From Candidatus Cloacimonadales bacterium (lineage in GTDB: Bacteria > Cloacimonadota > Cloacimonadia > Cloacimonadales > JAFGVF01): 64,000 bases of DNA. The stretch is from contig OY762964.1 in NCBI GenBank assembly GCA_963667035.1, positions 3,008,001 to 3,072,000 of the forward strand. The letters run 5' to 3'. Position 1 is the stretch's first letter. Every line of letters begins with the position of its first letter. Shown piece after piece: positions 31,445-54,332 of the stretch. A program made the position numbers and the translations under genes. The notes below the pieces were generated by a model. The model did not search any database and was not told the origin of the DNA. It saw nothing but the letters and a program-made list of their open reading frames with translations.

Positions 31445-31604
31445 ACTATCTTCCAAGCTTAAAAAGGATTTGACAGTATTACAAACTATTGAAAAATAAC
31501 TAAACTGGAAGATAGTATATACATTTACTCGTCGTTGCAATTACTAAATCGCAAGTAAGTAATAATTTTTGCAGGTGTTTATGTGATTAGAGAAATGTAT
31601 GTAT
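31445..31604 (+). promoter_or_regulatory. Promoter (TTGACA 31470) bracketed by 11-bp inverted repeat, followed by structured leader
   Basis: ACTATCTTCCA (31445-55)/TGGAAGATAGT (31506-16); stem 31515-30/31590-604. Confidence 0.5.
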
Positions 31605-31650: not shown

Positions 31651-34434
31651 ATGATTAAACATCGAAGAGCGGGTTTATCTCTTTTGATGGTTCTTCTTGT
31701 CCTTGCTGTTACTCCATTATGGAGTACCTCAGCAGCAGACATGATTGTAAAGAACCTTCAAGTAACAGATATCCCCAACGATGACGGATCAGGACTGCGT
31801 ATTAGCTGGACTCCGCTACCTAAGGAAGCAAGAATCCAAGAATACCATATATATCGCGGTATAAGCCCTGATTCCCTCTTTTTAGTCAGTACAATTCCGG
31901 TAAACCCCAAAACAGGTGTTTCTTCGGATGTTATGTACTATTACGATAGCGGTTGGACGCAGCTTATTAGCATTAACTCTCCCGCTAAACTGAAAAAAGA
32001 TAAGCAACCGGACCAAGAGAACAGTCCTCTCTATCTTGAAGTACCGCATGATATGGAGATTTTAAACAGTCTTCAACGTGCTACAACAATGCTTTATGCA
32101 ATGGATATAAAACCTTACTATTATCAATCAAAGAAGATTGAGAAAGATGGACAGGTTTATGCAGGTGTACCATGGTATTATGGAAGCATTTTAGGAAGAC
32201 TTGTTCCGGGTAATGAATATTACTATACTGTTGTTGCAACGAACGAACAAAGAAAATACTTCATGAGAGCTGATATTGTTTCTGGAACCCCAATGCCGAA
32301 TGAAGCAGCTCCGGTACTTGACTTTTACAGTAAATACCTTCCTGAAGAAGGAAACATTCAATTTGAATGGAAACACCCAGTGCAATCAACAGCTATTAGA
32401 GCGTATTCAGTTTTCATAGTTGAAGATAGCAAGTTAGATGCATTCCTTAACGGTGATTATGATAAAGCTACTCAAGTAGCTCAAGTAGGAGCTAGTACAA
32501 CTTATGCATCTGCTAAAGTAAGTGAGTTGTCCGGTTATGATTTTGACTCACTTGAGAAATATTCATTTGTAATTGGTGGTATTTATGGCGGTGGAATAAC
32601 TCTTTCAGCTCCAATTAAAGCCATGCGTTCCAAATTACCTGAATATTTCAAAAACACATCATTCTATGCCGGTGATGCTCCCGATGATAAAGGTGATTAT
32701 AACTTGATTCAATGGGGCAAACCATCAGCTTTTATTTCAGCTACTTCATTCTTAGGTGAAAAGAAAGATAGAATGATGATTGCTTATGATTATAAGATTA
32801 ACGATTTATACAAAGTTGATCAGATACACTTTTATTTCTTTGAAAAAGGAAAGGATGAACCTTTCTATATTCATAATGAATTCTATCAAGATAATAAGCT
32901 TGTCGTAACCTTACCGGAGGGTTATAATCCTGCAAATGGTATTGATGTTGAAATCAGATTTAAGGCTAAATCTCAGAAGAAAAACATTGAAGCTATTGAT
33001 GACAGTTATTTCTTAACTCAAGAGCTGAAATGGGATGACTTTATCAAGTCTTTGAAACCCGGTGATGTGTTCTATAACAATGTTAACTTGAACAAAACAT
33101 TTTACACTGTATTTAGTAAAGATAAACAATCGGCTTCTTATAGCGTAGCTAAAGAAGTTGTTGCCGTTGAAAGAAACTTCAATGACTTATCAGATTATCT
33201 CAAGAGAGATTATGCTATTGTTCAAGGTATTGATGTTGAAAACAATCTTTTTCTCGTAGACCATAACATTAGCTACAAATATGATAAAGCTTCTGACTCT
33301 GTTCTCAGTGTTAGCTTGTTCCCCGGTGTTGATGATGAGACTAAAGCAAGTCTTAAAAAAGAGATTGATGCTTTATTAACCCAAAAGGGTACTGAGACTG
33401 AGCCTGAAGCTATTGCTACTATTGATGCTCAAATAGCTGAGATGAACGCTCAACTTGAGCAGTTAAACAATCCTGTTCTTGAGAAAGTAAATAGCATCAA
33501 AGGCCGTAGAACCAGAATGAATCACATCAGAAGAGTAAGAGAAAAAGAACTTCGTAGCATTAGCTATAAACTTATGATTTCTGATGGTAAGGGACTTTTC
33601 TTTCAAGGAAAACCTCTTGAAAATGTTAGCGGAGATTTAGCTTATTTCTATCCAAGACCTAACTGGATTTACAAAACACGTATCGGTGGGTTAATTGCTG
33701 CTCTTATTTTTGGTATACTTGTGTTTGTAATGGTAGCTCTTGCAAGAAGAGGAAAAGCTCTTTATCTTAGACCTATTGCAGGTATTCAGGAAATTGACAA
33801 TGCAATTGGTCGTGCTACTGAGATGGGTAGTCCCATTCTTTTTGTTCCGGGACTTTCAGGCATCAGTGATGTTGCAACTCTTGCAGGACTTCAGATTCTT
33901 AATCAGGTTGCAAAAAAAGCAGCCGAATATGATACACCAATTCTTGTACCATGTAGAGACGTTATCGTTCTTCCTATTGCACAGGAAATTGTTAAAGAAG
34001 CTCATTATGAAGCAGGTCGTCCTGATACATTTGATCCTTCAAGTGTATTCTACATGACCGGTTCACAGTTTGCTTTTGTTGCCGGTATTAACGGTATCAT
34101 GGTTCGTGAAAAAGTAGCGACAAACTTCTATATGGGTATGTTCTATGCTGAATCACTTATCATGACAGAAACCGGTAACTCAATTGGTGCGGTACAGATT
34201 TCAGGTACTGATGCTGTTACGCAGATTCCTTTCTTTATTACCACTTGTGACTATACACTAATGGGTGAAGAACTTTATGCGGCAGCCGCTTATCTTTCTA
34301 AAGAACCAATGATGCTTGGAACACTTAAGGCTCAGGATTATTTCAAGTTCCTTATCCTTTTCTTTGTTGTTCTCGGAACATTACTTTCTTCGTTTAAAAT
34401 AACCTTTTTAGTTAACGCATTCCCTGATAAATAG
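31651..34434 (+). CDS. Membrane protein: large exported FN3-like region + C-terminal DUF6754-like domain
   Basis: Signal peptide; DIPNDDGSGLRISW and DAPDDKGDYNLIQW repeats; TM; RPIAGIQEIDNAIGRATEMG...QIPFFITTCDYTLMGEELYAA; final TM. Confidence 0.8.
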   Translation: MIKHRRAGLSLLMVLLVLAVTPLWSTSAADMIVKNLQVTDIPNDDGSGLRISWTPLPKEARIQEYHIYRGISPDSLFLVSTIPVNPKTGVSSDVMYYYDSGWTQLISINSPAKLKKDKQPDQENSPLYLEVPHDMEILNSLQRATTMLYAMDIKPYYYQSKKIEKDGQVYAGVPWYYGSILGRLVPGNEYYYTVVATNEQRKYFMRADIVSGTPMPNEAAPVLDFYSKYLPEEGNIQFEWKHPVQSTAIRAYSVFIVEDSKLDAFLNGDYDKATQVAQVGASTTYASAKVSELSGYDFDSLEKYSFVIGGIYGGGITLSAPIKAMRSKLPEYFKNTSFYAGDAPDDKGDYNLIQWGKPSAFISATSFLGEKKDRMMIAYDYKINDLYKVDQIHFYFFEKGKDEPFYIHNEFYQDNKLVVTLPEGYNPANGIDVEIRFKAKSQKKNIEAIDDSYFLTQELKWDDFIKSLKPGDVFYNNVNLNKTFYTVFSKDKQSASYSVAKEVVAVERNFNDLSDYLKRDYAIVQGIDVENNLFLVDHNISYKYDKASDSVLSVSLFPGVDDETKASLKKEIDALLTQKGTETEPEAIATIDAQIAEMNAQLEQLNNPVLEKVNSIKGRRTRMNHIRRVREKELRSISYKLMISDGKGLFFQGKPLENVSGDLAYFYPRPNWIYKTRIGGLIAALIFGILVFVMVALARRGKALYLRPIAGIQEIDNAIGRATEMGSPILFVPGLSGISDVATLAGLQILNQVAKKAAEYDTPILVPCRDVIVLPIAQEIVKEAHYEAGRPDTFDPSSVFYMTGSQFAFVAGINGIMVREKVATNFYMGMFYAESLIMTETGNSIGAVQISGTDAVTQIPFFITTCDYTLMGEELYAAAAYLSKEPMMLGTLKAQDYFKFLILFFVVLGTLLSSFKITFLVNAFPDK

Positions 34435-34447
34435 GAGCAGAATACAA

Positions 34448-35071
34448 ATGAAAAAACAAGTACCATTATTAATAGTAATTGTCATGAGTTTTCTGTTTGC
34501 CTTATGGGCTATCATACCACATAAGATTTCAGAAGACTTCTATCAGGGCTATCTTGTCTTCATCAGAGCAATGTCACCATTTGGTGTTGTTCTTGGTATT
34601 ATGAGTCTCACAATGGTTAACGTTGTGAAGATTAAGAGAAAAGCCCCAAATTGGCAGTACAGTTACGTTACTCTTTTTGCTTTTTATGCTACAGCAGCAA
34701 TAGGATTCATTTGGGGAACTAGTGAAGGTTCACCATATATATGGATATTCAAGAACATACAGATGCCGATGTCAGCAACTATGTTCTCATTGCTTGCTTT
34801 CTATATCTCAACAGCTGCTTATAAAGCTTTCCGTGCACGTTCTGCCGAAGCAACAGTACTTCTTGTTGCAGCTGTCGTAGTTATGCTTGGACAGGTTCCA
34901 TACGGTGTCATGATTAGTCCGAAGATCCCTGCATTTGCACAATGGATTCTGGACGTACCAAACCTTGCCTCTAAGCGTGGTTTCATGCTTGGTGTTGGTC
35001 TTGGTATGACCGCCGTATCCCTTAAAATCATGTTAGGTATCGAGCGTTCTTACCTCGGTGGCGGAGATTAA
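34448..35071 (+). CDS. Uncharacterised ~6-TM membrane protein (DUF6754 operon subunit 2)
   Basis: Hydrophobic, ATMFSLLAFYISTAAYKAFRAR, GIERSYLG; AGGAG RBS. Confidence 0.8.
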   Translation: MKKQVPLLIVIVMSFLFALWAIIPHKISEDFYQGYLVFIRAMSPFGVVLGIMSLTMVNVVKIKRKAPNWQYSYVTLFAFYATAAIGFIWGTSEGSPYIWIFKNIQMPMSATMFSLLAFYISTAAYKAFRARSAEATVLLVAAVVVMLGQVPYGVMISPKIPAFAQWILDVPNLASKRGFMLGVGLGMTAVSLKIMLGIERSYLGGGD

Positions 35072-35084
35072 TAAAGGAGATATG

Positions 35085-36068
35085 ATGGAATTTATTCAAA
35101 AACTACAGGATCTGGATAGAAAGTGGATTTATCTGATAGTTGCATTAGCTATCATTATCCCTTTACTTATTCCTTTTAACGCACCGACTTATACAACTGC
35201 TCCAACCGAAAAGTTATATCAGTTGATAGATTCTTTCTCTGATAGAGAAGACAGAGCTGTTCTTATTTGCTTTGCTCATGATGCTTCAACTATGGCAGAA
35301 CTTTATCCGATGGAAACAGCTATTCTTAGACATTGTTTCGAGAGAAACGTAAAAGTGTTTACTCTTACTTTCCTTGAAACTGCAGCTCCATTAATCAATT
35401 ATGCTATTGATACCGTTAAGAGTGAGTTCCCTGATGTAAGGTCAGGTGAGAATTATATCAATATCGGTTTCAAACCTACAGCTCTTTACTTACCTATCGT
35501 TATCGGTATGGGTGACGGAATTGCTGCTGCTGTTGAAACAGATGCAGAAGGTAGAAAACTTGAATCATTACCTATGATGAAAGGACTTAACAACTATAAC
35601 GAACTTAAACTTGTTGTTGAAACTTCAGGTGCAAGTTATGGTATGGGCTGGGTTACTTATGCTCGTGCTCGTTATGGTGTTAATGTTGCTGCCGGTGTTA
35701 CAGCTGTTATGGCTGCTGACGCTTATCCTTACCTTCAAACCGGTCAGCTTACCGGAATGCTTTCAGGTATGAAGGGTGCTGCCGAATATGAATATCTCAA
35801 TGACGTTTTTGCCGCATACGAGAGCAAAGATTTCCCTAATGGAAGACCATTCAGTAAGGAAATTCTTAAAGACAAGAACGAAATTGCTAAGATTGACATA
35901 GCTAAAGATTGGGATCCTGAGACAAAGACAGGTATCAAGTATAAATGGAAAACTGCCAGAATCGGTATGAATGCTCAATCTGTTGCTCACGTGATGATAT
36001 TCTTGTTTATCCTCATCGGTAATATAGGATTCTTTGTTGAGCGTCATCAGAAGAAGAAAAACAGTTAA
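35085..36068 (+). CDS. Uncharacterised membrane-anchored protein (DUF6754 operon subunit 3)
   Basis: AAGGAG RBS then ATG 35085 (or 35082); N- and C-terminal TM around alpha/beta domain; YPYLQTGQLTGMLSGMKGAAEYE. Confidence 0.8.
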   Translation: MEFIQKLQDLDRKWIYLIVALAIIIPLLIPFNAPTYTTAPTEKLYQLIDSFSDREDRAVLICFAHDASTMAELYPMETAILRHCFERNVKVFTLTFLETAAPLINYAIDTVKSEFPDVRSGENYINIGFKPTALYLPIVIGMGDGIAAAVETDAEGRKLESLPMMKGLNNYNELKLVVETSGASYGMGWVTYARARYGVNVAAGVTAVMAADAYPYLQTGQLTGMLSGMKGAAEYEYLNDVFAAYESKDFPNGRPFSKEILKDKNEIAKIDIAKDWDPETKTGIKYKWKTARIGMNAQSVAHVMIFLFILIGNIGFFVERHQKKKNS

Positions 36069-36079
36069 AAGGAGAAGAC

Positions 36080-36682
36080 ATGTTTGAGATTATTAGTAAT
36101 TTAATTGCAGCTTTCTTTACATTGGCTATCTTCTCTTTCCTCTACAAAGATAACCCTGTGTATCGTTTGTCTGAGCAGTTATTGGTTGGTATTTCCGCTG
36201 GATACGGTCTTCCGCTTATGTGGCAGAATGCATTTATCCCTTTCGTTTATCAGCCTATATTCATTCAACATAAATGGTATTTACTTATTCCATGTATCGT
36301 CGGTACCTTCTATTGGTTCCGTTTTAACAATAAACTTAGCTGGTTAGCACGCTACCCCATAGCTATTGGTATGGGTATGACAGGTGCCGGTGTTATCTTG
36401 TCAATGAATGCTAGTGTTCTTGTTCAGATGCGCTCAGCTATGCAACCAATCGATAGCTTCAATATGTTCCTTGTTTTCCTCGGAACAGTATCTGTGATGC
36501 TTTATTTCTATTTCTCTAAAGCTCATACAGGTATCTACGGTAAGTTTACTAAGGTTGGTATTTGGTTCATGATGATTGGTTTCGGTGCATCATTCGGTAA
36601 TACAGTTATGGCTCGTATTTCCCTTTTGATCGGGCGAATTCAATTCCTTGTAAATGATGTTATCATGGGATTTATTAAATAA
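36080..36682 (+). CDS. Uncharacterised ~6-TM membrane protein (DUF6754 operon subunit 4)
   Basis: SFLYKDNPVYRLSE..VGISAGY, MMIGFGASFGNTVMARISLLIGR; AAGGAG RBS. Confidence 0.8.
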   Translation: MFEIISNLIAAFFTLAIFSFLYKDNPVYRLSEQLLVGISAGYGLPLMWQNAFIPFVYQPIFIQHKWYLLIPCIVGTFYWFRFNNKLSWLARYPIAIGMGMTGAGVILSMNASVLVQMRSAMQPIDSFNMFLVFLGTVSVMLYFYFSKAHTGIYGKFTKVGIWFMMIGFGASFGNTVMARISLLIGRIQFLVNDVIMGFIK

Positions 36683-36705: not shown

Positions 36706-36731
36706 AAAGACCCGCTTAATGCGGGTCTTTT
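36706..36731 (+). terminator. Intrinsic terminator of four-gene operon
   Basis: AAAGACCCGC-ttaat-GCGGGTCTTT + T. Confidence 0.85.
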
Positions 36732-36827
36732 GCTATCTATGATGAAGCATTAACAGTATTTACTAGCTTACAACAATCCTTGAGTTAAATGTACAGCTAT
36801 TATTTTAACATAGTCACACACAATAAA

Positions 36828-36859
36828 AGAGTTGACATGTAAAGAGTTAACTCTACAAT
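36828..36859 (+). promoter_or_regulatory. sigma70-type promoter with overlapping inverted repeat
   Basis: TTGACA-N16-TACAAT; AGAGTTGAC/GTTAACTCT IR overlaps -35 and spacer. Confidence 0.6.
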
Positions 36860-36902
36860 TTGAAAATTGTAGGTTTATTTAAAATAATAAGGAGTGTGTA
36901 TT

Positions 36903-38660
36903 ATGAAGAAAACAATTCTAATATTGTTTGTTTTAACTATTACCGTTTTACTCTCAGCAACTACCAGAGACGTAATGACTCTCTCTAATCACGGGGCTTC
37001 GATTTCTAACTATTGGAATGCTCCTAATCAATATGGCGATATTGATCAAGGTGTACAGTACACTGCCGTGGCAGATTGTACTTTGGAAACATGGCAGCTA
37101 TTGTTATACAATATAGTAGGAACTCCTCCCTCAATTGTTGTACATGTATACGGAGATAATGGTGGCTATCCGGGGGTTGAGCTAGGCTCTTTGACTGTCC
37201 CAACATCCGGTTTGGTTACTTATTCATCTGGCTGGAATAATATCGATTTAAGTAGTCTTAATATCAGCCTCAATACAGGAGATGTCTTTTATATTACTTA
37301 CACAGTAACAAACGGAGTGTATGGTACTGCAGAGGTACAATGGCTTTCTGATAATGGTACTTATGCTACTACAAGTAAAACATATCAAGGTAATGGAAGC
37401 TCATGGCTAACTATGGGAGAAGGATGGGGTACACCTTATGAAATGTTTGCTAATGCTGTTATAGAGACTACCGGAACTGTAGGTCCTATCTTTGATATTA
37501 ATTTTGAGTCTTATAATTATGGATTAACCGCTATTGGAGGAGGTAAATATGAGATATTTACTATATCCAATACAGGTGGTGGAGCAATGGTTTTGCAGAG
37601 TGTTGGGCTCACAGGTTCTTCTGATTTCAGTGGTTACTGGAATGGAGACGTTCCAACATTCCCTCTCTCTCTTGCAAATGGAGAATCTGTTTCATTAGTA
37701 ATTGATTATTATCCAACAGACGTAGGATCTGACTCCGGTAGTATTGATATTACTTTGGATGATAGAGAAGTTCAGAATATTCCATTAAGCGGCTCAGGCT
37801 ATATCCATAATACATGGGCATCAGCAGGAGCAATGTTCGATCAGTCCCCGGCAGGAAATCAGGGAGATTATGCTTGGTCTATGTCTACATCTGATACTGA
37901 TGCCGGATATCTTAAAGCTGAGAATTTTGCCGGATTAACAGAGCAAATAGGTAGCATTGATTTTTGGGGTGTTAATTTTTATAATGACGGTTCAGGATGG
38001 TCAGAAGTAACTACCGAAAATCCTATGGACTTCCAGATTATATTCTATAATAACGACGCTAATGATCTTCCAGGAACTATTGTCCAAACATATAACCCAA
38101 CTATTTCAAGAGAGACTATAACAGATTCCTTATTTAACAGCTCTGCTGTTTATAAGTATCATTACGAGCTACCTTCACCTATAACTCTAAACGAAGGGTG
38201 GGTGTCAATACAGGGAACAAGCACAGGCACTCCTGATAATGCTTGGTTCTTGTGGTCAACATCTCCTATAGGTGATATAGTAAAGGGTAATTATACTACA
38301 GCATGGGGTTGGGATGCTACAGACTTAGCATTTGCTCTTTATCCTTCAACAGCTATAGATCCACCTCAGGATATCACGATTACAATGAATGGTCAGTATC
38401 CTGAAATCTCTTGGACAGATGCTCCCGGTCTTGTTAATAACATCTACAGAGCTGATACTCCCGGAGGTGCATACAATGTAGTAGGTACAGTAGGTGATGG
38501 TGCAGGCTCTTTCCTTGATACTTCTATTACTCAAGATAAGCATTTCTATCATGTTACTAATAATACAATGGTAAGTCGTAGAATGACAATGACACCTTTA
38601 AGAGCTATTAGAAGAATAGAACCAAGACTTGTTAATCGAGATGAAACTATTACACAATAA
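36903..38660 (+). CDS. Secreted protein with choice-of-anchor D (ASH/Ig-like) domain
   Basis: Signal peptide MKKTILILFVLTITVLLSA; FTISNTGGG...L..GES...YYPT..G...IPLSGSG; partial FN3 at end; no FlgD tail. Confidence 0.75.
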   Translation: MKKTILILFVLTITVLLSATTRDVMTLSNHGASISNYWNAPNQYGDIDQGVQYTAVADCTLETWQLLLYNIVGTPPSIVVHVYGDNGGYPGVELGSLTVPTSGLVTYSSGWNNIDLSSLNISLNTGDVFYITYTVTNGVYGTAEVQWLSDNGTYATTSKTYQGNGSSWLTMGEGWGTPYEMFANAVIETTGTVGPIFDINFESYNYGLTAIGGGKYEIFTISNTGGGAMVLQSVGLTGSSDFSGYWNGDVPTFPLSLANGESVSLVIDYYPTDVGSDSGSIDITLDDREVQNIPLSGSGYIHNTWASAGAMFDQSPAGNQGDYAWSMSTSDTDAGYLKAENFAGLTEQIGSIDFWGVNFYNDGSGWSEVTTENPMDFQIIFYNNDANDLPGTIVQTYNPTISRETITDSLFNSSAVYKYHYELPSPITLNEGWVSIQGTSTGTPDNAWFLWSTSPIGDIVKGNYTTAWGWDATDLAFALYPSTAIDPPQDITITMNGQYPEISWTDAPGLVNNIYRADTPGGAYNVVGTVGDGAGSFLDTSITQDKHFYHVTNNTMVSRRMTMTPLRAIRRIEPRLVNRDETITQ

Positions 38661-38755: not shown

Positions 38756-40087
38756 CTATTTATCACCCGTATATTTCTTCCATTGATAATCAAATTTACG
38801 GTAACTAAGATTTAACAGCTTAGCAGCTTTCACTTTGTTTCCACCTGCTACTTGCATGGCATTTACAAAGTATTTCCTCCTAATTTCATCTAAGATGTTC
38901 TCCAAATCAAAATCATCATCTTGTACGTCAGCTAATACACCTGAATCATTCTTGCCGGAAAAACTAAAGTGTTCAGGTTTAATCAGGTCATTAGAGAGAA
39001 TAGAAGCTCTCTCTATTTCGTTCTTTAGCTCTCGAATATTACCCGGCCAGTTATGATGCTTAAGAGCATCTAAAGCCATACGTGATACTTTACGGTTCAG
39101 TTTGTTTGCAAAGCATCCAGTTAATAGTGAAATATCTTCAACTCTCTCTCTCAGAGGAGGAATTTCAAGAATAAAGGTCTTTAGCCTATAATACAGGTCT
39201 AATCTGAACAGTCCCTGATTAATCAAATCCTGAGGATTCCTATTGGTTGCAGCAATGATTCTTACGTCTGTCTTTACACTTCGAGAGCTTCCTACTGGAG
39301 TTACTTCTTCTGATTCAAGAACTCTTAGAAGTTTGGCTTGAAAAGCCAGAGGCATATCACTTAGTTCATCAAGGAAAAGAGTACCTCCTTTAGCCTCTTG
39401 AAATTTACCCTTGTTATCCCTGATTGCTCCGGTAAAAGCCCCTTTAACGTGGCCAAAAAACTCTGATTCAAAAAGATTTTCGGATATTGCCGAACAATTA
39501 ACTGCCAATAACGGTTTGTTTCTCCTCTTCGAAAGCACATGAATTGCTTTAACAACTAATTCTTTTCCTGTTCCACTTTCTCCTACTACCAATACTGATG
39601 CTTCTGAAGGAGCAACAACTCTGATTAGACGCTTTACTTCAGCAATCTGAGGAGTATCACCTATAATGTGAGAGCAATAGTCGGATTTATCCAATCTATG
39701 AACAAGCTCAGACACTTTGTCGTGCATCTTTTTTACTTCTTCCGCACCTCTAACCAAGCCTATTAGTTCATCATTATCAAAAGGTTTCTTGATAAAGTTA
39801 TACGCTCCGGTCTGTATTGCCGACACCGCTTTTGATACATCTCCGTTAGCTGTAATTATTATATATTGAGTTCCATAAAGGAGTTTCTTCATCTCAATCA
39901 TTGTCTCAATACCGTTCATTCCTGGTAGGACCAAATCAAGTAGCACAACATCAGGGTTAAATCTGGTAGCTTCCACCAAAGCATCTTCACCTGAGTTGCA
40001 ACTTTGCGTCTCGAAACCTTCATCCTCTAACAAAAGGCAGAGAATTCGGCATATCTTTTTCTCGTCATCAACTACAAGAATCTTCAT
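38756..40087 (-). CDS. Sigma-54-dependent response regulator (NtrC family)
   Basis: ILVVDDE..LLD receiver, GESGTGKE, ESEFFGHVKGAFTGA, LFLDE, WPGNIREL, Fis-type HTH; ATG 40087. Confidence 0.95.
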   Translation of the reverse strand: MKILVVDDEKKICRILCLLLEDEGFETQSCNSGEDALVEATRFNPDVVLLDLVLPGMNGIETMIEMKKLLYGTQYIIITANGDVSKAVSAIQTGAYNFIKKPFDNDELIGLVRGAEEVKKMHDKVSELVHRLDKSDYCSHIIGDTPQIAEVKRLIRVVAPSEASVLVVGESGTGKELVVKAIHVLSKRRNKPLLAVNCSAISENLFESEFFGHVKGAFTGAIRDNKGKFQEAKGGTLFLDELSDMPLAFQAKLLRVLESEEVTPVGSSRSVKTDVRIIAATNRNPQDLINQGLFRLDLYYRLKTFILEIPPLRERVEDISLLTGCFANKLNRKVSRMALDALKHHNWPGNIRELKNEIERASILSNDLIKPEHFSFSGKNDSGVLADVQDDDFDLENILDEIRRKYFVNAMQVAGGNKVKAAKLLNLSYRKFDYQWKKYTGDK

Positions 40088-40091
40088 TATT

Positions 40092-41267
40092 CTATTCCTT
40101 AAAATCAATAAGTTTAAATGTGAATCTGGTTCCAACTCCTGGGTTAGATGTTACTCTCAAGTCAGAGTTAAGTTGCTTCAACAATTTCCTACAGAATGCT
40201 AAACCAAGTCCATAACCTCCGCTTTTGGTTGAGAAGAAAGGTTCGAAGGCTCTATTCATAACTTTTTCTGTCATCCCGATACCGTTATCGTTCCATCCGA
40301 TAACAACTCCATCCGCAGTTGGGAGTATATCAATTTCTATTTTAGGATATATAGTTTCCTTCAAAGCGTTTATACTGTTTGATAGCAGGTTACTAAAAAC
40401 TCTCATTAGAGCTGTTTCATTTCCTAATACGGGTCTTTTATCTGTAAGCTTATTCTCAATAGCAAAATCGATTTTTTTCTCTTTCATAAGGTTATCGTTA
40501 AGCCTAACTAATTTATTTAGTAGTTCCGATATATCTATACTTTCAATTTTACTGACAGTAGGATTAGTCATTTCAAGCATTTCGTGAGTAATCTGTCCTA
40601 TCCTATCCACTTCATCAATCAAGTCGTGTGTTAGCTGTAATTCAGTATCGTAAGTAAGTTTTTTTGCTATAAATTGAATACTACTACGAATGGAAGTCAG
40701 AGGATTTTTTATCTCATGTGCTAGGACAGAAACCATTTTTTCCATAATAAAGAGTCTGTTTCGTTCTTTTTCGTCATCGTGTATTTTGTTAAGTATTCTT
40801 ATTCTTCTGGCATTATCATAAGATAAGGAGCACAAGGTGAAGATGCTTTCCATTAAAGGAACAATCCTCTTGTATTTCTTTGTGTCATCCAGTTCTATAA
40901 ATGCGATTGCAAGGAGATGGTTTAAGTTAATCAAAGGAAAGATATGACTGTATGAGAGCAGACCGACCCTATTCAATTCGACTTTAATATAATCCTTGAT
41001 ATTACCGTCTACCGGTAACACGGTTCGGTTTACTTTTAACCAATTTACCAGTTTGGAATCACAACTAAAGGAATAGTTCTCATTATCCTTAAGAGCTGTG
41101 AAATTGTCCATGTTCTCTACCAGAAAGACTATATTGCTAACAGACCAGAGTTCATTAATTTTTCCGGCAGTAACTTCGAGTATCATGTTCTCATCAGCTA
41201 TATTGGAATATGCTCCGATGAATTCATTATAGATTTTCCCGAAATCGTCTCGATTTTTTCTTATCAA
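40092..41267 (-). CDS. Soluble sensor histidine kinase with GAF-like N-terminus
   Basis: LAHEIKNPL, NLLSNS, DNGIG, FEPFFSTK, GYGLGL; no clear TM. Confidence 0.9.
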   Translation of the reverse strand: MIRKNRDDFGKIYNEFIGAYSNIADENMILEVTAGKINELWSVSNIVFLVENMDNFTALKDNENYSFSCDSKLVNWLKVNRTVLPVDGNIKDYIKVELNRVGLLSYSHIFPLINLNHLLAIAFIELDDTKKYKRIVPLMESIFTLCSLSYDNARRIRILNKIHDDEKERNRLFIMEKMVSVLAHEIKNPLTSIRSSIQFIAKKLTYDTELQLTHDLIDEVDRIGQITHEMLEMTNPTVSKIESIDISELLNKLVRLNDNLMKEKKIDFAIENKLTDKRPVLGNETALMRVFSNLLSNSINALKETIYPKIEIDILPTADGVVIGWNDNGIGMTEKVMNRAFEPFFSTKSGGYGLGLAFCRKLLKQLNSDLRVTSNPGVGTRFTFKLIDFKE

Positions 41268-49372: not shown

Positions 49373-50918
<1,546 letters not shown>

Positions 50919-51021
50919 TAAAGGTGTATAAAGCGATGAATCTTTTAATCAGATTCCATTGCAATAATTAATGTTCGGTAAGTTGTTCACTCACTTTTAT
51001 AAATTTTAAGCAAAATATAGT

Positions 51022-51098
<77 letters not shown>

Positions 51099-51104
51099 GC
51101 ATTT

Positions 51105-51180
51105 GGGGGTTTAGCTCAGCTGGGAGAGCACCTGCTTTGCAAGCAGGCGGTCAACGGTTCGATCCCGTTAACCTCCACCA
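51105..51180 (+). tRNA. tRNA-Ala (TGC)
   Basis: GGGGGTTTAGCTCAGCTGGGAGAGC...TTTGCAA...GGTTCGATCCC...CTCCACCA; G3:U70. Confidence 0.97.
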
Positions 51181-51235
51181 TATTTTTAGATCTAACAAAG
51201 TGAAATACGTGGGATAGAGTGTATAGAGGATATTC

Positions 51236-54110
<2,875 letters not shown>

Positions 54111-54161
54111 AAACTTTATATACTCTATCCCAGCAAATATAGTCGCAAAGCAGCGGCTGAA

Positions 54162-54277
54162 GATGGTGGCAATTGCGGTGATGATACACCTGTACCCATT
54201 CCGAACACAGCAGTTAAGCTCACCAGCGTCGATGGTACTGCATTGGCAACGATGTGGGAGAGTAGATCGCCGCCATC
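54162..54277 (+). rRNA. rrf: 5S rRNA (ends approximate)
   Basis: CACCTGTACCCATTCCGAACACAGCAGTTAAG, GATGGTACTGC, GGGAGAGTAG. Confidence 0.96.
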
Positions 54278-54332
54278 TTCAGCCGCTGTTGACTTTTAAA
54301 GACAAAGTCAATGACATTTATTTTTTTATAAC

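Follow-up and report, generated by a model that had tools for sequence, protein, structure and literature searches.

Organization of the four-gene cassette

Four tightly packed open reading frames (ORFs) on the forward strand, referred to as genes A, B, C, and D, occupy positions 31651–36682 of a 64,000-nucleotide stretch of DNA (the window; positions 3,008,001 to 3,072,000 of contig OY762964.1). The source genome, from the Cloacimonadales, is a single contig of 3.10 Mb and is 98.2% complete. The comparisons described below show, or strongly imply, that this four-protein module is genetically coupled to a cytoplasmic unit composed of a small protein, an ATPase of the actin/Hsp70 fold (ASKHA), and a barrel-sandwich partner. 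Judging from sequence comparison, we suggest that A-B-C-D may be the inner-membrane module of a widespread multi-component ATP-dependent translocation system, a reading to which we assign a probability of about 60%. The features are collected in Table 1.

Table 1. Coordinates of the cassette, its neighbors, and the related loci of the same genome. Positions are those of the window, except in lines marked 'genome', where they refer to the whole contig. TM, transmembrane; RBS, ribosome-binding site.
Feature	Position	Strand	Description
Promoter-like site	31470–31497	+	TTGACA-16-AAAAAT, ~150 nucleotides 5' of A; consensus match
Gene A	31651–34434	+	927 residues; ORF; RBS GGAAGGAG; PF20539 match; signal peptide, ~640-residue exported region, TM helix, DUF6754 Rossmann-like domain (predicted cytoplasmic), C-terminal TM helix
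A, exported part	31735–33672	+	about residues 29–674; fast-evolving
A, DUF6754 region	33655–34416	+	TM1 ~675–699, six-stranded α/β domain (predicted cytoplasmic), TM2 ~886–914
Gene B	34448–35071	+	207 residues; polytopic, ~6 TM helices; N- and C-terminus inside (predicted); RBS TAGGAG
Gene C	35082–36068	+	328 residues; RBS AAGGAG; TM helix, six-stranded α/β domain (predicted periplasmic), TM helix, basic tail (predicted cytoplasmic)
Gene D	36080–36682	+	200 residues; polytopic, ~6 TM helices; N-terminus outside (predicted); RBS AAGGAG
Terminator	36706–36732	+	10-bp G+C-rich stem, 5-nucleotide loop, T-run; hairpin at 36706–36730
Promoter-like site of the next gene	36832–36859		TTGACA-16-TACAAT
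Gene after the cassette	36894–38660	+	588 residues; secreted-looking
ORF	38756–40135	-	459 residues
rRNA operon	49373–54278	+	complete: 16S, two tRNAs, 23S, 5S
Fused ATPase-partner gene (genome)	~117,710–120,580	-	956 residues; PF13941
Second cassette (genome)	~1,343,509–1,346,768	-	365, 231, 273, and 213 residues
Operon of the cytoplasmic unit (genome, G000:C1)	~2,586,967–2,592,282		small protein, split ATPase, partner
Restriction-modification pair (genome)	~2,589,982–2,591,890	-	between the small gene and the ATPase gene

Each of the four genes is preceded by an AGGAG-type RBS, as a first-pass annotation made from the sequence alone had described, and the spacers between A and B, B and C, and C and D measure 13, 10, and 11 nucleotides. 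For gene C, the ORF list gives a GTG start at 35058 (336 residues). The start is instead the ATG at 35082, 10 nucleotides after the stop codon of B, because AAGGAG precedes this ATG and the homologues begin there (97% coverage).

The first-pass annotation also gave the genes their own promoter and terminator, of which the terminator stands: its fold has a ΔG of -21.6 kcal/mol and a z-score of -6.8, and none of 200 shuffled sequences was equally stable. The promoter part fared less well. TTGACA-16-AAAAAT matches the consensus, but a consensus scan found 26 promoter-like sites around the cassette against 20.1 ± 4.6 expected from shuffles, which is no enrichment, and we treat the site as a candidate promoter. 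The high-expression codon usage noticed by eye is borne out by the codon adaptation index (CAI). With 27 ribosomal-protein genes of the same genome as the reference, A, B, C, and D fall at percentiles 96.1, 82.2, 99.4, and 93.2 among 2011 ORFs. Of the public sequencing runs, three from a single study contain this DNA, and none of those listed is an RNA run.

Residues 669–922 of A match DUF6754 (PF20539) end to end (model positions 2–255 of 257; E = 1.5e-114; 381.9 bits against a cut-off of 27), and A scores 385.9 bits in the whole-genome PF20539 search. The family has no function in the catalogue and covers A alone; neither Pfam nor NCBIfam contains a match to B, C, or D. The DUF6754 part of A is 73–85% identical to its 76 orthologues within the phylum. 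The exported part, which follows a signal peptide recognized by eye, shows 13–37% identity per 50-residue block among the same orthologues, with 59% at residues 51–100. It begins with a conserved FN3-like module bearing an NDDG motif and contains a coiled-coil-like stretch near residues 555–640. The earlier description of the whole exported region as FN3-like is weak, being matched by one sub-threshold fn3 hit (20.8 bits against a cut-off of 25) that covers residues 34–68 only.

Protein C is abundant in sequence space, with 3618 representative clusters (50% identity) found at E ≤ 1e-3 among 1.84 billion representatives. In its last helix, M296, Q299, and H303 are nearly invariant and N314 is invariant. 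D carries an invariant E32, and B carries conserved R177 and E199, all of them within or next to predicted TM segments.

Conservation of the cassette

With the DUF6754 domain as the query, we obtained 80 loci, of which 78 are labeled as Cloacimonadota or uncultured bacterium and 2 as Armatimonadota. An A homologue is found in every one of them. All four genes are present in 70 loci, and the remaining 10 end at a contig edge just past the last gene seen, so that the co-occurrence of the four genes, on which the first-pass proposal leaned, is conserved. The order is A-B-C-D in 69 loci and A-B-D-C in one (L081), and A-B-C-D is also the order kept in the loci of other phyla; in fact, the same cassette accompanies DUF6754 in every phylum sampled. 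Each of the genes that flank the cassette in the window is found in at most 4 of these loci.

The genome carries a second, diverged cassette, whose A protein has an exported module of only ~100 residues compared with ~640 residues in this copy. The exported region of this copy is unusually long. Across the phylum, 94 of 101 Cloacimonadota genomes have one to five DUF6754 matches. The 70 complete loci put the conservation of the cassette far beyond chance. The view that the four proteins behave as one conserved membrane unit is supported by the constant gene order, by the second, paralogous cassette, by natural fusions of B with C and of C with D, and by the C-like domains inserted in B.

In 10 of the 80 Cloacimonadota loci (L007, L012, L014, L021, L024, L034, L035, L048, L075, and L083), a second long A-type gene of 935–1012 residues lies directly 3' of D, which suggests tandem cassettes. 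The same place in the window is taken by the unrelated 588-residue gene.

Predicted topology, folds, and natural fusions

AlphaFold2 modeled the domain of A with a mean predicted local distance difference test score (pLDDT) of 89.0, and C with a pLDDT of 96.3 and a predicted template modeling score (pTM) of 0.92. Both models show the same element order, namely a TM helix, a helix, six β-α units, and a TM helix, in line with the shared TM-α/β-TM plan that had been read from the sequence. In the A alignment, the count of lysine plus arginine is 3.0 in the 15 residues past TM1 and 0.6 before TM1. These basic residues, together with the exported region that follows the signal peptide and precedes TM1, place the A domain inside. 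In the family alignment of C, the C-terminal tail has a lysine plus arginine count of 3.8; the tail is therefore predicted inside and the C domain outside. The charge pattern thus reproduces the earlier placement of the two domains on opposite sides of the membrane.

B and D appear to be oriented oppositely as well. The alignments of 46 and 41 sequences locate the basic loops after TM2 and TM4 in B, and after TM1, TM3, and TM5 in D. The insert sites agree with this pattern. Among the 21 longer relatives of B, the majority carry an insert of ~170–400 residues at profile position ~92, in the loop between TM3 and TM4. The inserts include extracellular-type domains: one is named 'FG-GAP-like repeat' by its source, and one contains PF02018. 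Four contain a C-like α/β domain. Among the 81 longer relatives of D, 21–23 have an insert at profile position ~120–135, in the loop between TM4 and TM5 (147–215 residues in the four measured). More generally, B, C, and D of other lineages tolerate large insertions in their outward-facing parts, which reach ~550 residues in C; the relatives in question are P0163, P0197, P0223, and P0249 for C, P0275–P0295 for B, and P0296–P0370 for D. The exposed surface is modular in all four subunits, not in A alone.

Natural fusions provide a third kind of evidence. One protein is a direct B-C fusion, and the N-terminus of C should therefore lie on the same side as the C-terminus of B. In six C-D fusions, the linker of 105–113 residues contains an extra hydrophobic 19-mer (hydropathy 1.5–1.9), and such a helix fits a crossing from the inside tail of C to the outside N-terminus of D. 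Two further fusions do not fit this picture: P0305 has a 7-residue linker, and in P0347 the C part is partial and the linker is not hydrophobic. Either may be an artefact of read-through or of a frameshift. The three kinds of evidence are consistent with one predicted arrangement, in which the N-terminus of B is inside, that of D is outside, the A domain is inside, and the C domain is outside. The fusions are a further argument for placing B, C, and D together.

A four-chain complex prediction with the A domain, B, C, and D, in which D was the partner, scored 0.70, 0.71, and 0.71. When the partner was replaced, the two controls each scored 0.00, and replacement of chain 3 gave 0.57. We count this prediction neither for nor against a complex.

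Comparison within the A/C and B/D pairs

The first-pass annotation went further and read A/C and B/D as inverted paralogue pairs that form a self-contained, pseudo-symmetric secondary transporter or channel with no need of an ATPase. Besides the opposite orientations, the common element order of A and C speaks for such a design, as do the 14 entries that their top-50 fold lists have in common and the similar size and number of hydrophobic segments of B and D. Homology within the pairs, by contrast, is not detected by any of the methods applied. BLASTP gives no signal for A-C or B-D (E = 1.1 for B-D). By hhalign, with shallow and deep alignments, A-C reaches P of 0.04 and 0.026, which is comparable to the 0.029–0.037 of the non-pair comparisons, and the value of 0.026 covers only 22 columns of the last TM helix. 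The B-D comparison reaches 0.35 and 0.12. Scores from an unfiltered hmmsearch within the pairs are no better than those of reversed-sequence controls. As a positive control, a phmmer search with one seed found all the RnfA and RnfE proteins, which are genuine antiparallel paralogues, of 30 Cloacimonadota loci.

Foldseek against the Protein Data Bank (PDB) gives no match for the A domain at E ≤ 1e-3; for C it gives a single match of poor quality, to 3wdl_C (E = 8.5e-4, TM-score 0.32–0.39, root-mean-square deviation 12.5). The 14 common entries are generic Rossmann-like folds drawn from flat lists. At the level of the predicted models, the shared architecture of A and C is real, and common ancestry is possible. 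B and D resemble the antiparallel paralogue-pair transporters (EbrA/B, RnfA/E, and NqrD/E) in their predicted opposite orientation, but differ from them in that the two members have no detectable homology.

Linkage to a GlmL-like ATPase and its partner

A second locus search, seeded with a distant C homologue, yielded 80 loci from other phyla, namely from Nitrospirota, Eisenbacteria, Zixibacteria, Ignavibacteria, Dormibacterota, Methylomirabilota, Binatia, Fidelibacterota, Latescibacterota, WOR-3, Stahlbacteria, and a metagenome-assembled genome (MAG) of Bacillota. The usual layout in these loci is a GlmL-like ATPase, a barrel-sandwich partner, and then A-B-C-D. In several loci, two or three A-B-C-D sets follow one ATPase pair in tandem. 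Of these loci, 49 are informative in that they extend 3.2 kb or more upstream of the first A gene. In 43 of the 49, the ATPase and/or the partner is encoded on the strand of A, no farther than 3.5 kb upstream of it. PF13941, the family of the ATPase, was present in five of five genomes checked; it occurs elsewhere in the genome for a locus with an unlinked cassette (L103, genome G003) and for a locus without upstream sequence (L091, genome G005).

Co-occurrence, scored by matches to DUF6754 and PF13941, follows the same trend. Among 121 Nitrospirota genomes, 19 have both the cassette and the ATPase, 101 have neither, and one has the ATPase only, as a PF13941 fragment at a contig end. Among the 101 Cloacimonadota genomes, 94 have both, 6 have neither, and one, 93% complete, has the ATPase only. 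Related genomes are not independent, and we read these counts as a statement of consistency, not as statistics.

The six Cloacimonadota genomes that have neither (G127, G130, G133, G142, G148, and G189) form family f11. They belong to one genus, are complete, and measure 1.5–1.6 Mb; f11 is a reduced lineage in which the whole system has been lost.

Both components are also present in the genome described here, where they are unlinked: the cassettes lie at 3.04 and 1.35 Mb, and the ATPase genes at 2.59 and 0.12 Mb. In some Cloacimonadota relatives, the cassette and the ATPase are adjacent or on one contig. The absence of an ATPase in or beside the cassette in this genome had favored the self-contained transporter. 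The operon linkage in other phyla and the co-occurrence in two phylum samples speak against that reading, and together with the lack of a homology signal within the pairs they make an ATP-independent paralogue-pair transporter unlikely.

The numbers of the two components differ, with one to five DUF6754 and one to three PF13941 matches per genome. We considered a one-to-one pairing, in which a long-A cassette belongs to a fused ATPase, and rejected it, since in several genomes there is a single PF13941 match to three of DUF6754.

The cytoplasmic unit

The genome has two PF13941 genes. The first encodes a split ATPase of 620 residues, which matches PF13941 over its full length (E = 1.1e-126), and is directly followed by a partner of 376 residues. 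The second is a natural fusion of ATPase and partner. Residues 2–493 of the fusion are 40% identical to the ATPase (E = 2e-114), and residues 596–954 match the partner, with 28% identity over 721–954 (E = 1e-24) and 33% over 596–712 (E = 2e-10). Fused forms of 950–1080 residues occur in most of the sampled Cloacimonadota; judged by match coordinates, the fused gene in G145 and G211 apparently lies directly 5' of a long-A cassette.

A protein of ~130 residues precedes the ATPase in 18 of the 80 other-phylum loci and in three Cloacimonadota relatives. In the genome described here, a pair of genes for an R.HinP1I-like endonuclease and a C-5 cytosine methylase lies between the ~130-residue gene and the ATPase gene. 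The small gene, the ATPase, and the partner are contiguous in G150, which is of the same genus, and in G170 and G128.

The CAI percentiles of the split ATPase and its partner are 89 and 98, compared with 16–54 for the second cassette and 43 for the fused ATPase. This codon usage suggests that the cassette in the window and the split ATPase with its partner may be the highly expressed set in the organism.

The ATPase is 59–65% identical between phyla. It shares the ASKHA fold family of GlmL/MutL and Or-4 (PF13941, NF040745, and NF040744) but differs from them in several respects. Its scores fall well short of the curated cut-offs (217 against 475 for GlmL, 203 against 600, and 161 against 204 bits), it has a C-terminal extension of ~120 residues, a barrel-sandwich partner stands in the place of mutase genes, and its operon in other phyla also encodes membrane proteins. 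A glutamate mutase E subunit (PF06368) is not found in this 98.2%-complete genome. The score below the GlmL cut-off and the missing E subunit both indicate that the ATPase is not a glutamate-mutase helper in this genome.

The N-terminus of the partner shows weak likeness to lipoyl, RnfC_N, and NqrA_N barrel-sandwich domains, and the RnfC_N and NqrA_N matches (E = 1e-4 to 2e-4) are below the cut-offs. In eight loci, mostly from Eisenbacteria (L092, L099, L122, L124, L143, L153, L164, and L166), a lipoate-protein ligase-like gene lies directly 3' of D. Lipoylation or biotinylation of the partner was considered and rejected, since an alignment of 19 sequences shows no conservation of the hairpin-tip lysine; the ligase-like neighbor is, for the same reason, probably coincidental.

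The likeness of the partner to RnfC_N and NqrA_N raises the idea of a redox or ion-translocating complex related to Rnf and Na+-NQR, with B and D in the role of RnfA and RnfE and the partner in that of RnfC or NqrA. The partner scores 21 bits with TIGR01945 (rnfC), and the subunit plan is reminiscent, consisting of two opposite proteins of ~200 residues and ~6 TM helices next to bitopic subunits with an outside domain and an inside Rossmann-like domain. Nevertheless, 21 bits compares with a cut-off of 246, and B and D have no PF02508 match in Pfam at E ≤ 0.1. Against a 60-sequence Rnf-Nqr profile of the same phylum, hhalign gives P of 0.14 for B and 0.17 for D, and PDB chain profiles of B and D give nothing. 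B contains no cysteine and the single cysteine of D, C72, is not among the conserved columns, so the absence of paired cysteines indeed argues against an Rnf-like Fe-S site, as had been noted.

Moreover, Rnf-Nqr genes are present separately in this genome (four matches), and genomes without the cassette keep Rnf: five of the six f11 genomes, all but G189, were in the Rnf-Nqr sample, and their Rnf-Nqr genes are kept. As an analogy, the system would resemble the Rnf/Na+-NQR core in its subunit plan and its barrel-sandwich soluble subunit only. It differs in having no sequence relation, no conserved cysteines or cofactor families, and an ASKHA ATPase without redox input. We therefore regard an Rnf/Nqr-type pump as highly unlikely.

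A PDB sequence-profile search with A, B, C, D, the partner, and the ATPase gave nothing significant. The hits include a chance-level match to an acetylcholine receptor (E = 0.72) and, for the partner, weak matches to N-acetylmannosamine-6-phosphate 2-epimerase (best E = 0.012) and to KOW-like Spt5/uL24 domains (E = 0.2–0.45). In the ESM Atlas, the clusters nearest to B are unnamed and D has no usable named match. A–D, the ATPase, the partner, and the small protein match none of the PADLOC families. We found no publications on DUF6754 or PF13941 in the searchable literature, and nothing relevant in the accessible part of the literature on GlmL, membranes, and ASKHA or on glutamate mutase, MutL, and ASKHA. 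No solved structure (by sequence or by fold), curated family, or publication that we found explains the system.

A model for the system

Based on the linkage and the predicted topology, we propose the following mechanism. The cytoplasmic unit, composed of the ~130-residue protein, the GlmL-related ATPase, and the partner of ~375 residues, would dock on the membrane module, most likely through the cytoplasmic domain of A. The ATPase may then drive a conformational cycle in a path made up of B and D together with the TM helices of A and C. Polar residues of this putative path would be Q299, H303, and N314 of C, E32 of D, and R177 and E199 of B. The exposed parts of A and C would catch a ligand, and the cycle would carry it through the membrane, most probably inward. 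The ATPase unit or units could serve several exchangeable modules, of which this genome has two and its relatives have up to five.

Energy-coupling factor (ECF) transporters and some ATP-binding cassette (ABC) sugar importers share one energizing ATPase among several modules. By analogy, the system would resemble them in combining few cytoplasmic ATPase units with several membrane modules. It differs from them in its components: A–D match no ABC ATPase, ABC permease, EcfT, or S-component family in Pfam, and the ATPase is of the actin/Hsp70 fold. Tentatively, we speculate that the cassette could be one substrate-specific module of a new class of ATP-driven transporter. Several modules per cell would share a GlmL-like motor of the actin/Hsp70 fold with a barrel-sandwich adaptor, in place of an ABC, P-type, or V/F-type ATPase, and B and D would form an antiparallel translocation core whose common origin, if any, would no longer be visible in their sequences. 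In 13 of the 80 other-phylum loci, OppD/F-type ATPases are encoded no more than 10 kb away, and this window has none; they give a weak hint to peptides.

Force transmitted through the module might instead serve a purpose other than transport. In such an ATP-driven envelope machine, it would assemble, anchor, remodel, or activate an item at the surface by way of the variable exported parts of A–D, comparable to mechanotransmission of the FtsEX or MacB type or to a PilM-N-O-like scaffold. The outward parts of the system are large and fast-evolving or swappable (the exported region of A and the inserts of B, C, and D), and the cytoplasmic domain of A and the ATPase are both highly conserved; these features speak for such a machine. 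There are precedents for the docking as well, as actin-fold proteins dock on bitopic membrane proteins in PilM/PilN, FtsA, and GspL.

On the other hand, the system spans phyla of different envelope types, for example the Bacillota MAG, a distribution that speaks against a role bound to one kind of envelope. The conserved polar residues within or next to the TM segments of B, C, and D better fit a translocation path than a mere scaffold. The neighbor scans of the loci revealed no conserved hydrolase or surface-structure gene beside the cassette, and no pilus or secretion family among nine ORFs from the recurrent neighbor clusters. The analogy with PilM-PilN-PilO, GspL-GspM, and FtsA would lie in an actin-fold protein coupled to inner-membrane partners; the system differs from these assemblies in having no family match, an ATPase of the GlmL clade, and cassette neighbors that are not conserved. 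We consider the envelope machine rather improbable and yet a serious rival.

Several observations weigh against ATP-dependent translocation by the A-B-C-D module. ASKHA ATPases are not known to power transporters. The ATPase is unlinked to the cassette in this genome, and the coupling is drawn from other phyla and from co-occurrence. The other-phylum loci are mostly from Nitrospirota and Eisenbacteria, and 6 of the 49 informative ones have no linked ATPase. The joint absence in Cloacimonadota amounts to a single family of six small genomes, and one genome of this phylum has the ATPase without DUF6754. Finally, the pairing is not one to one, as many relatives have three cassettes and one ATPase.

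If the translocation reading is true, a conserved and apparently well-expressed membrane machine of ~7 proteins would be present in many bacterial phyla, including Cloacimonadota, Nitrospirota, Eisenbacteria, Zixibacteria, Ignavibacteria, WOR-3, Binatia, and others. Its motor would come from a fold family not known to energize membrane processes, and none of its membrane subunits resembles a studied transporter. In Cloacimonadota and Nitrospira, which are important for anaerobic digestion and nitrification, the machine could represent a major uptake or envelope function that annotation at present overlooks completely or wrongly labels as a glutamate-mutase helper.

Neighboring genes

The secreted-looking 588-residue protein encoded after the cassette matches the choice-of-anchor D domain below threshold, scoring 40.2 bits with NF012200 where 45 are required (E = 3.9e-10). 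Its gene has its own strong promoter-like site (Table 1) and adjoins the cassette in only 3 of the 80 loci. By eye, the 459-residue ORF on the minus strand resembles a response regulator that includes an AAA+ sigma-54 activator domain. Further downstream, the G+C content rises to 0.49–0.50 at 50–54 kb because of the rRNA operon located there.

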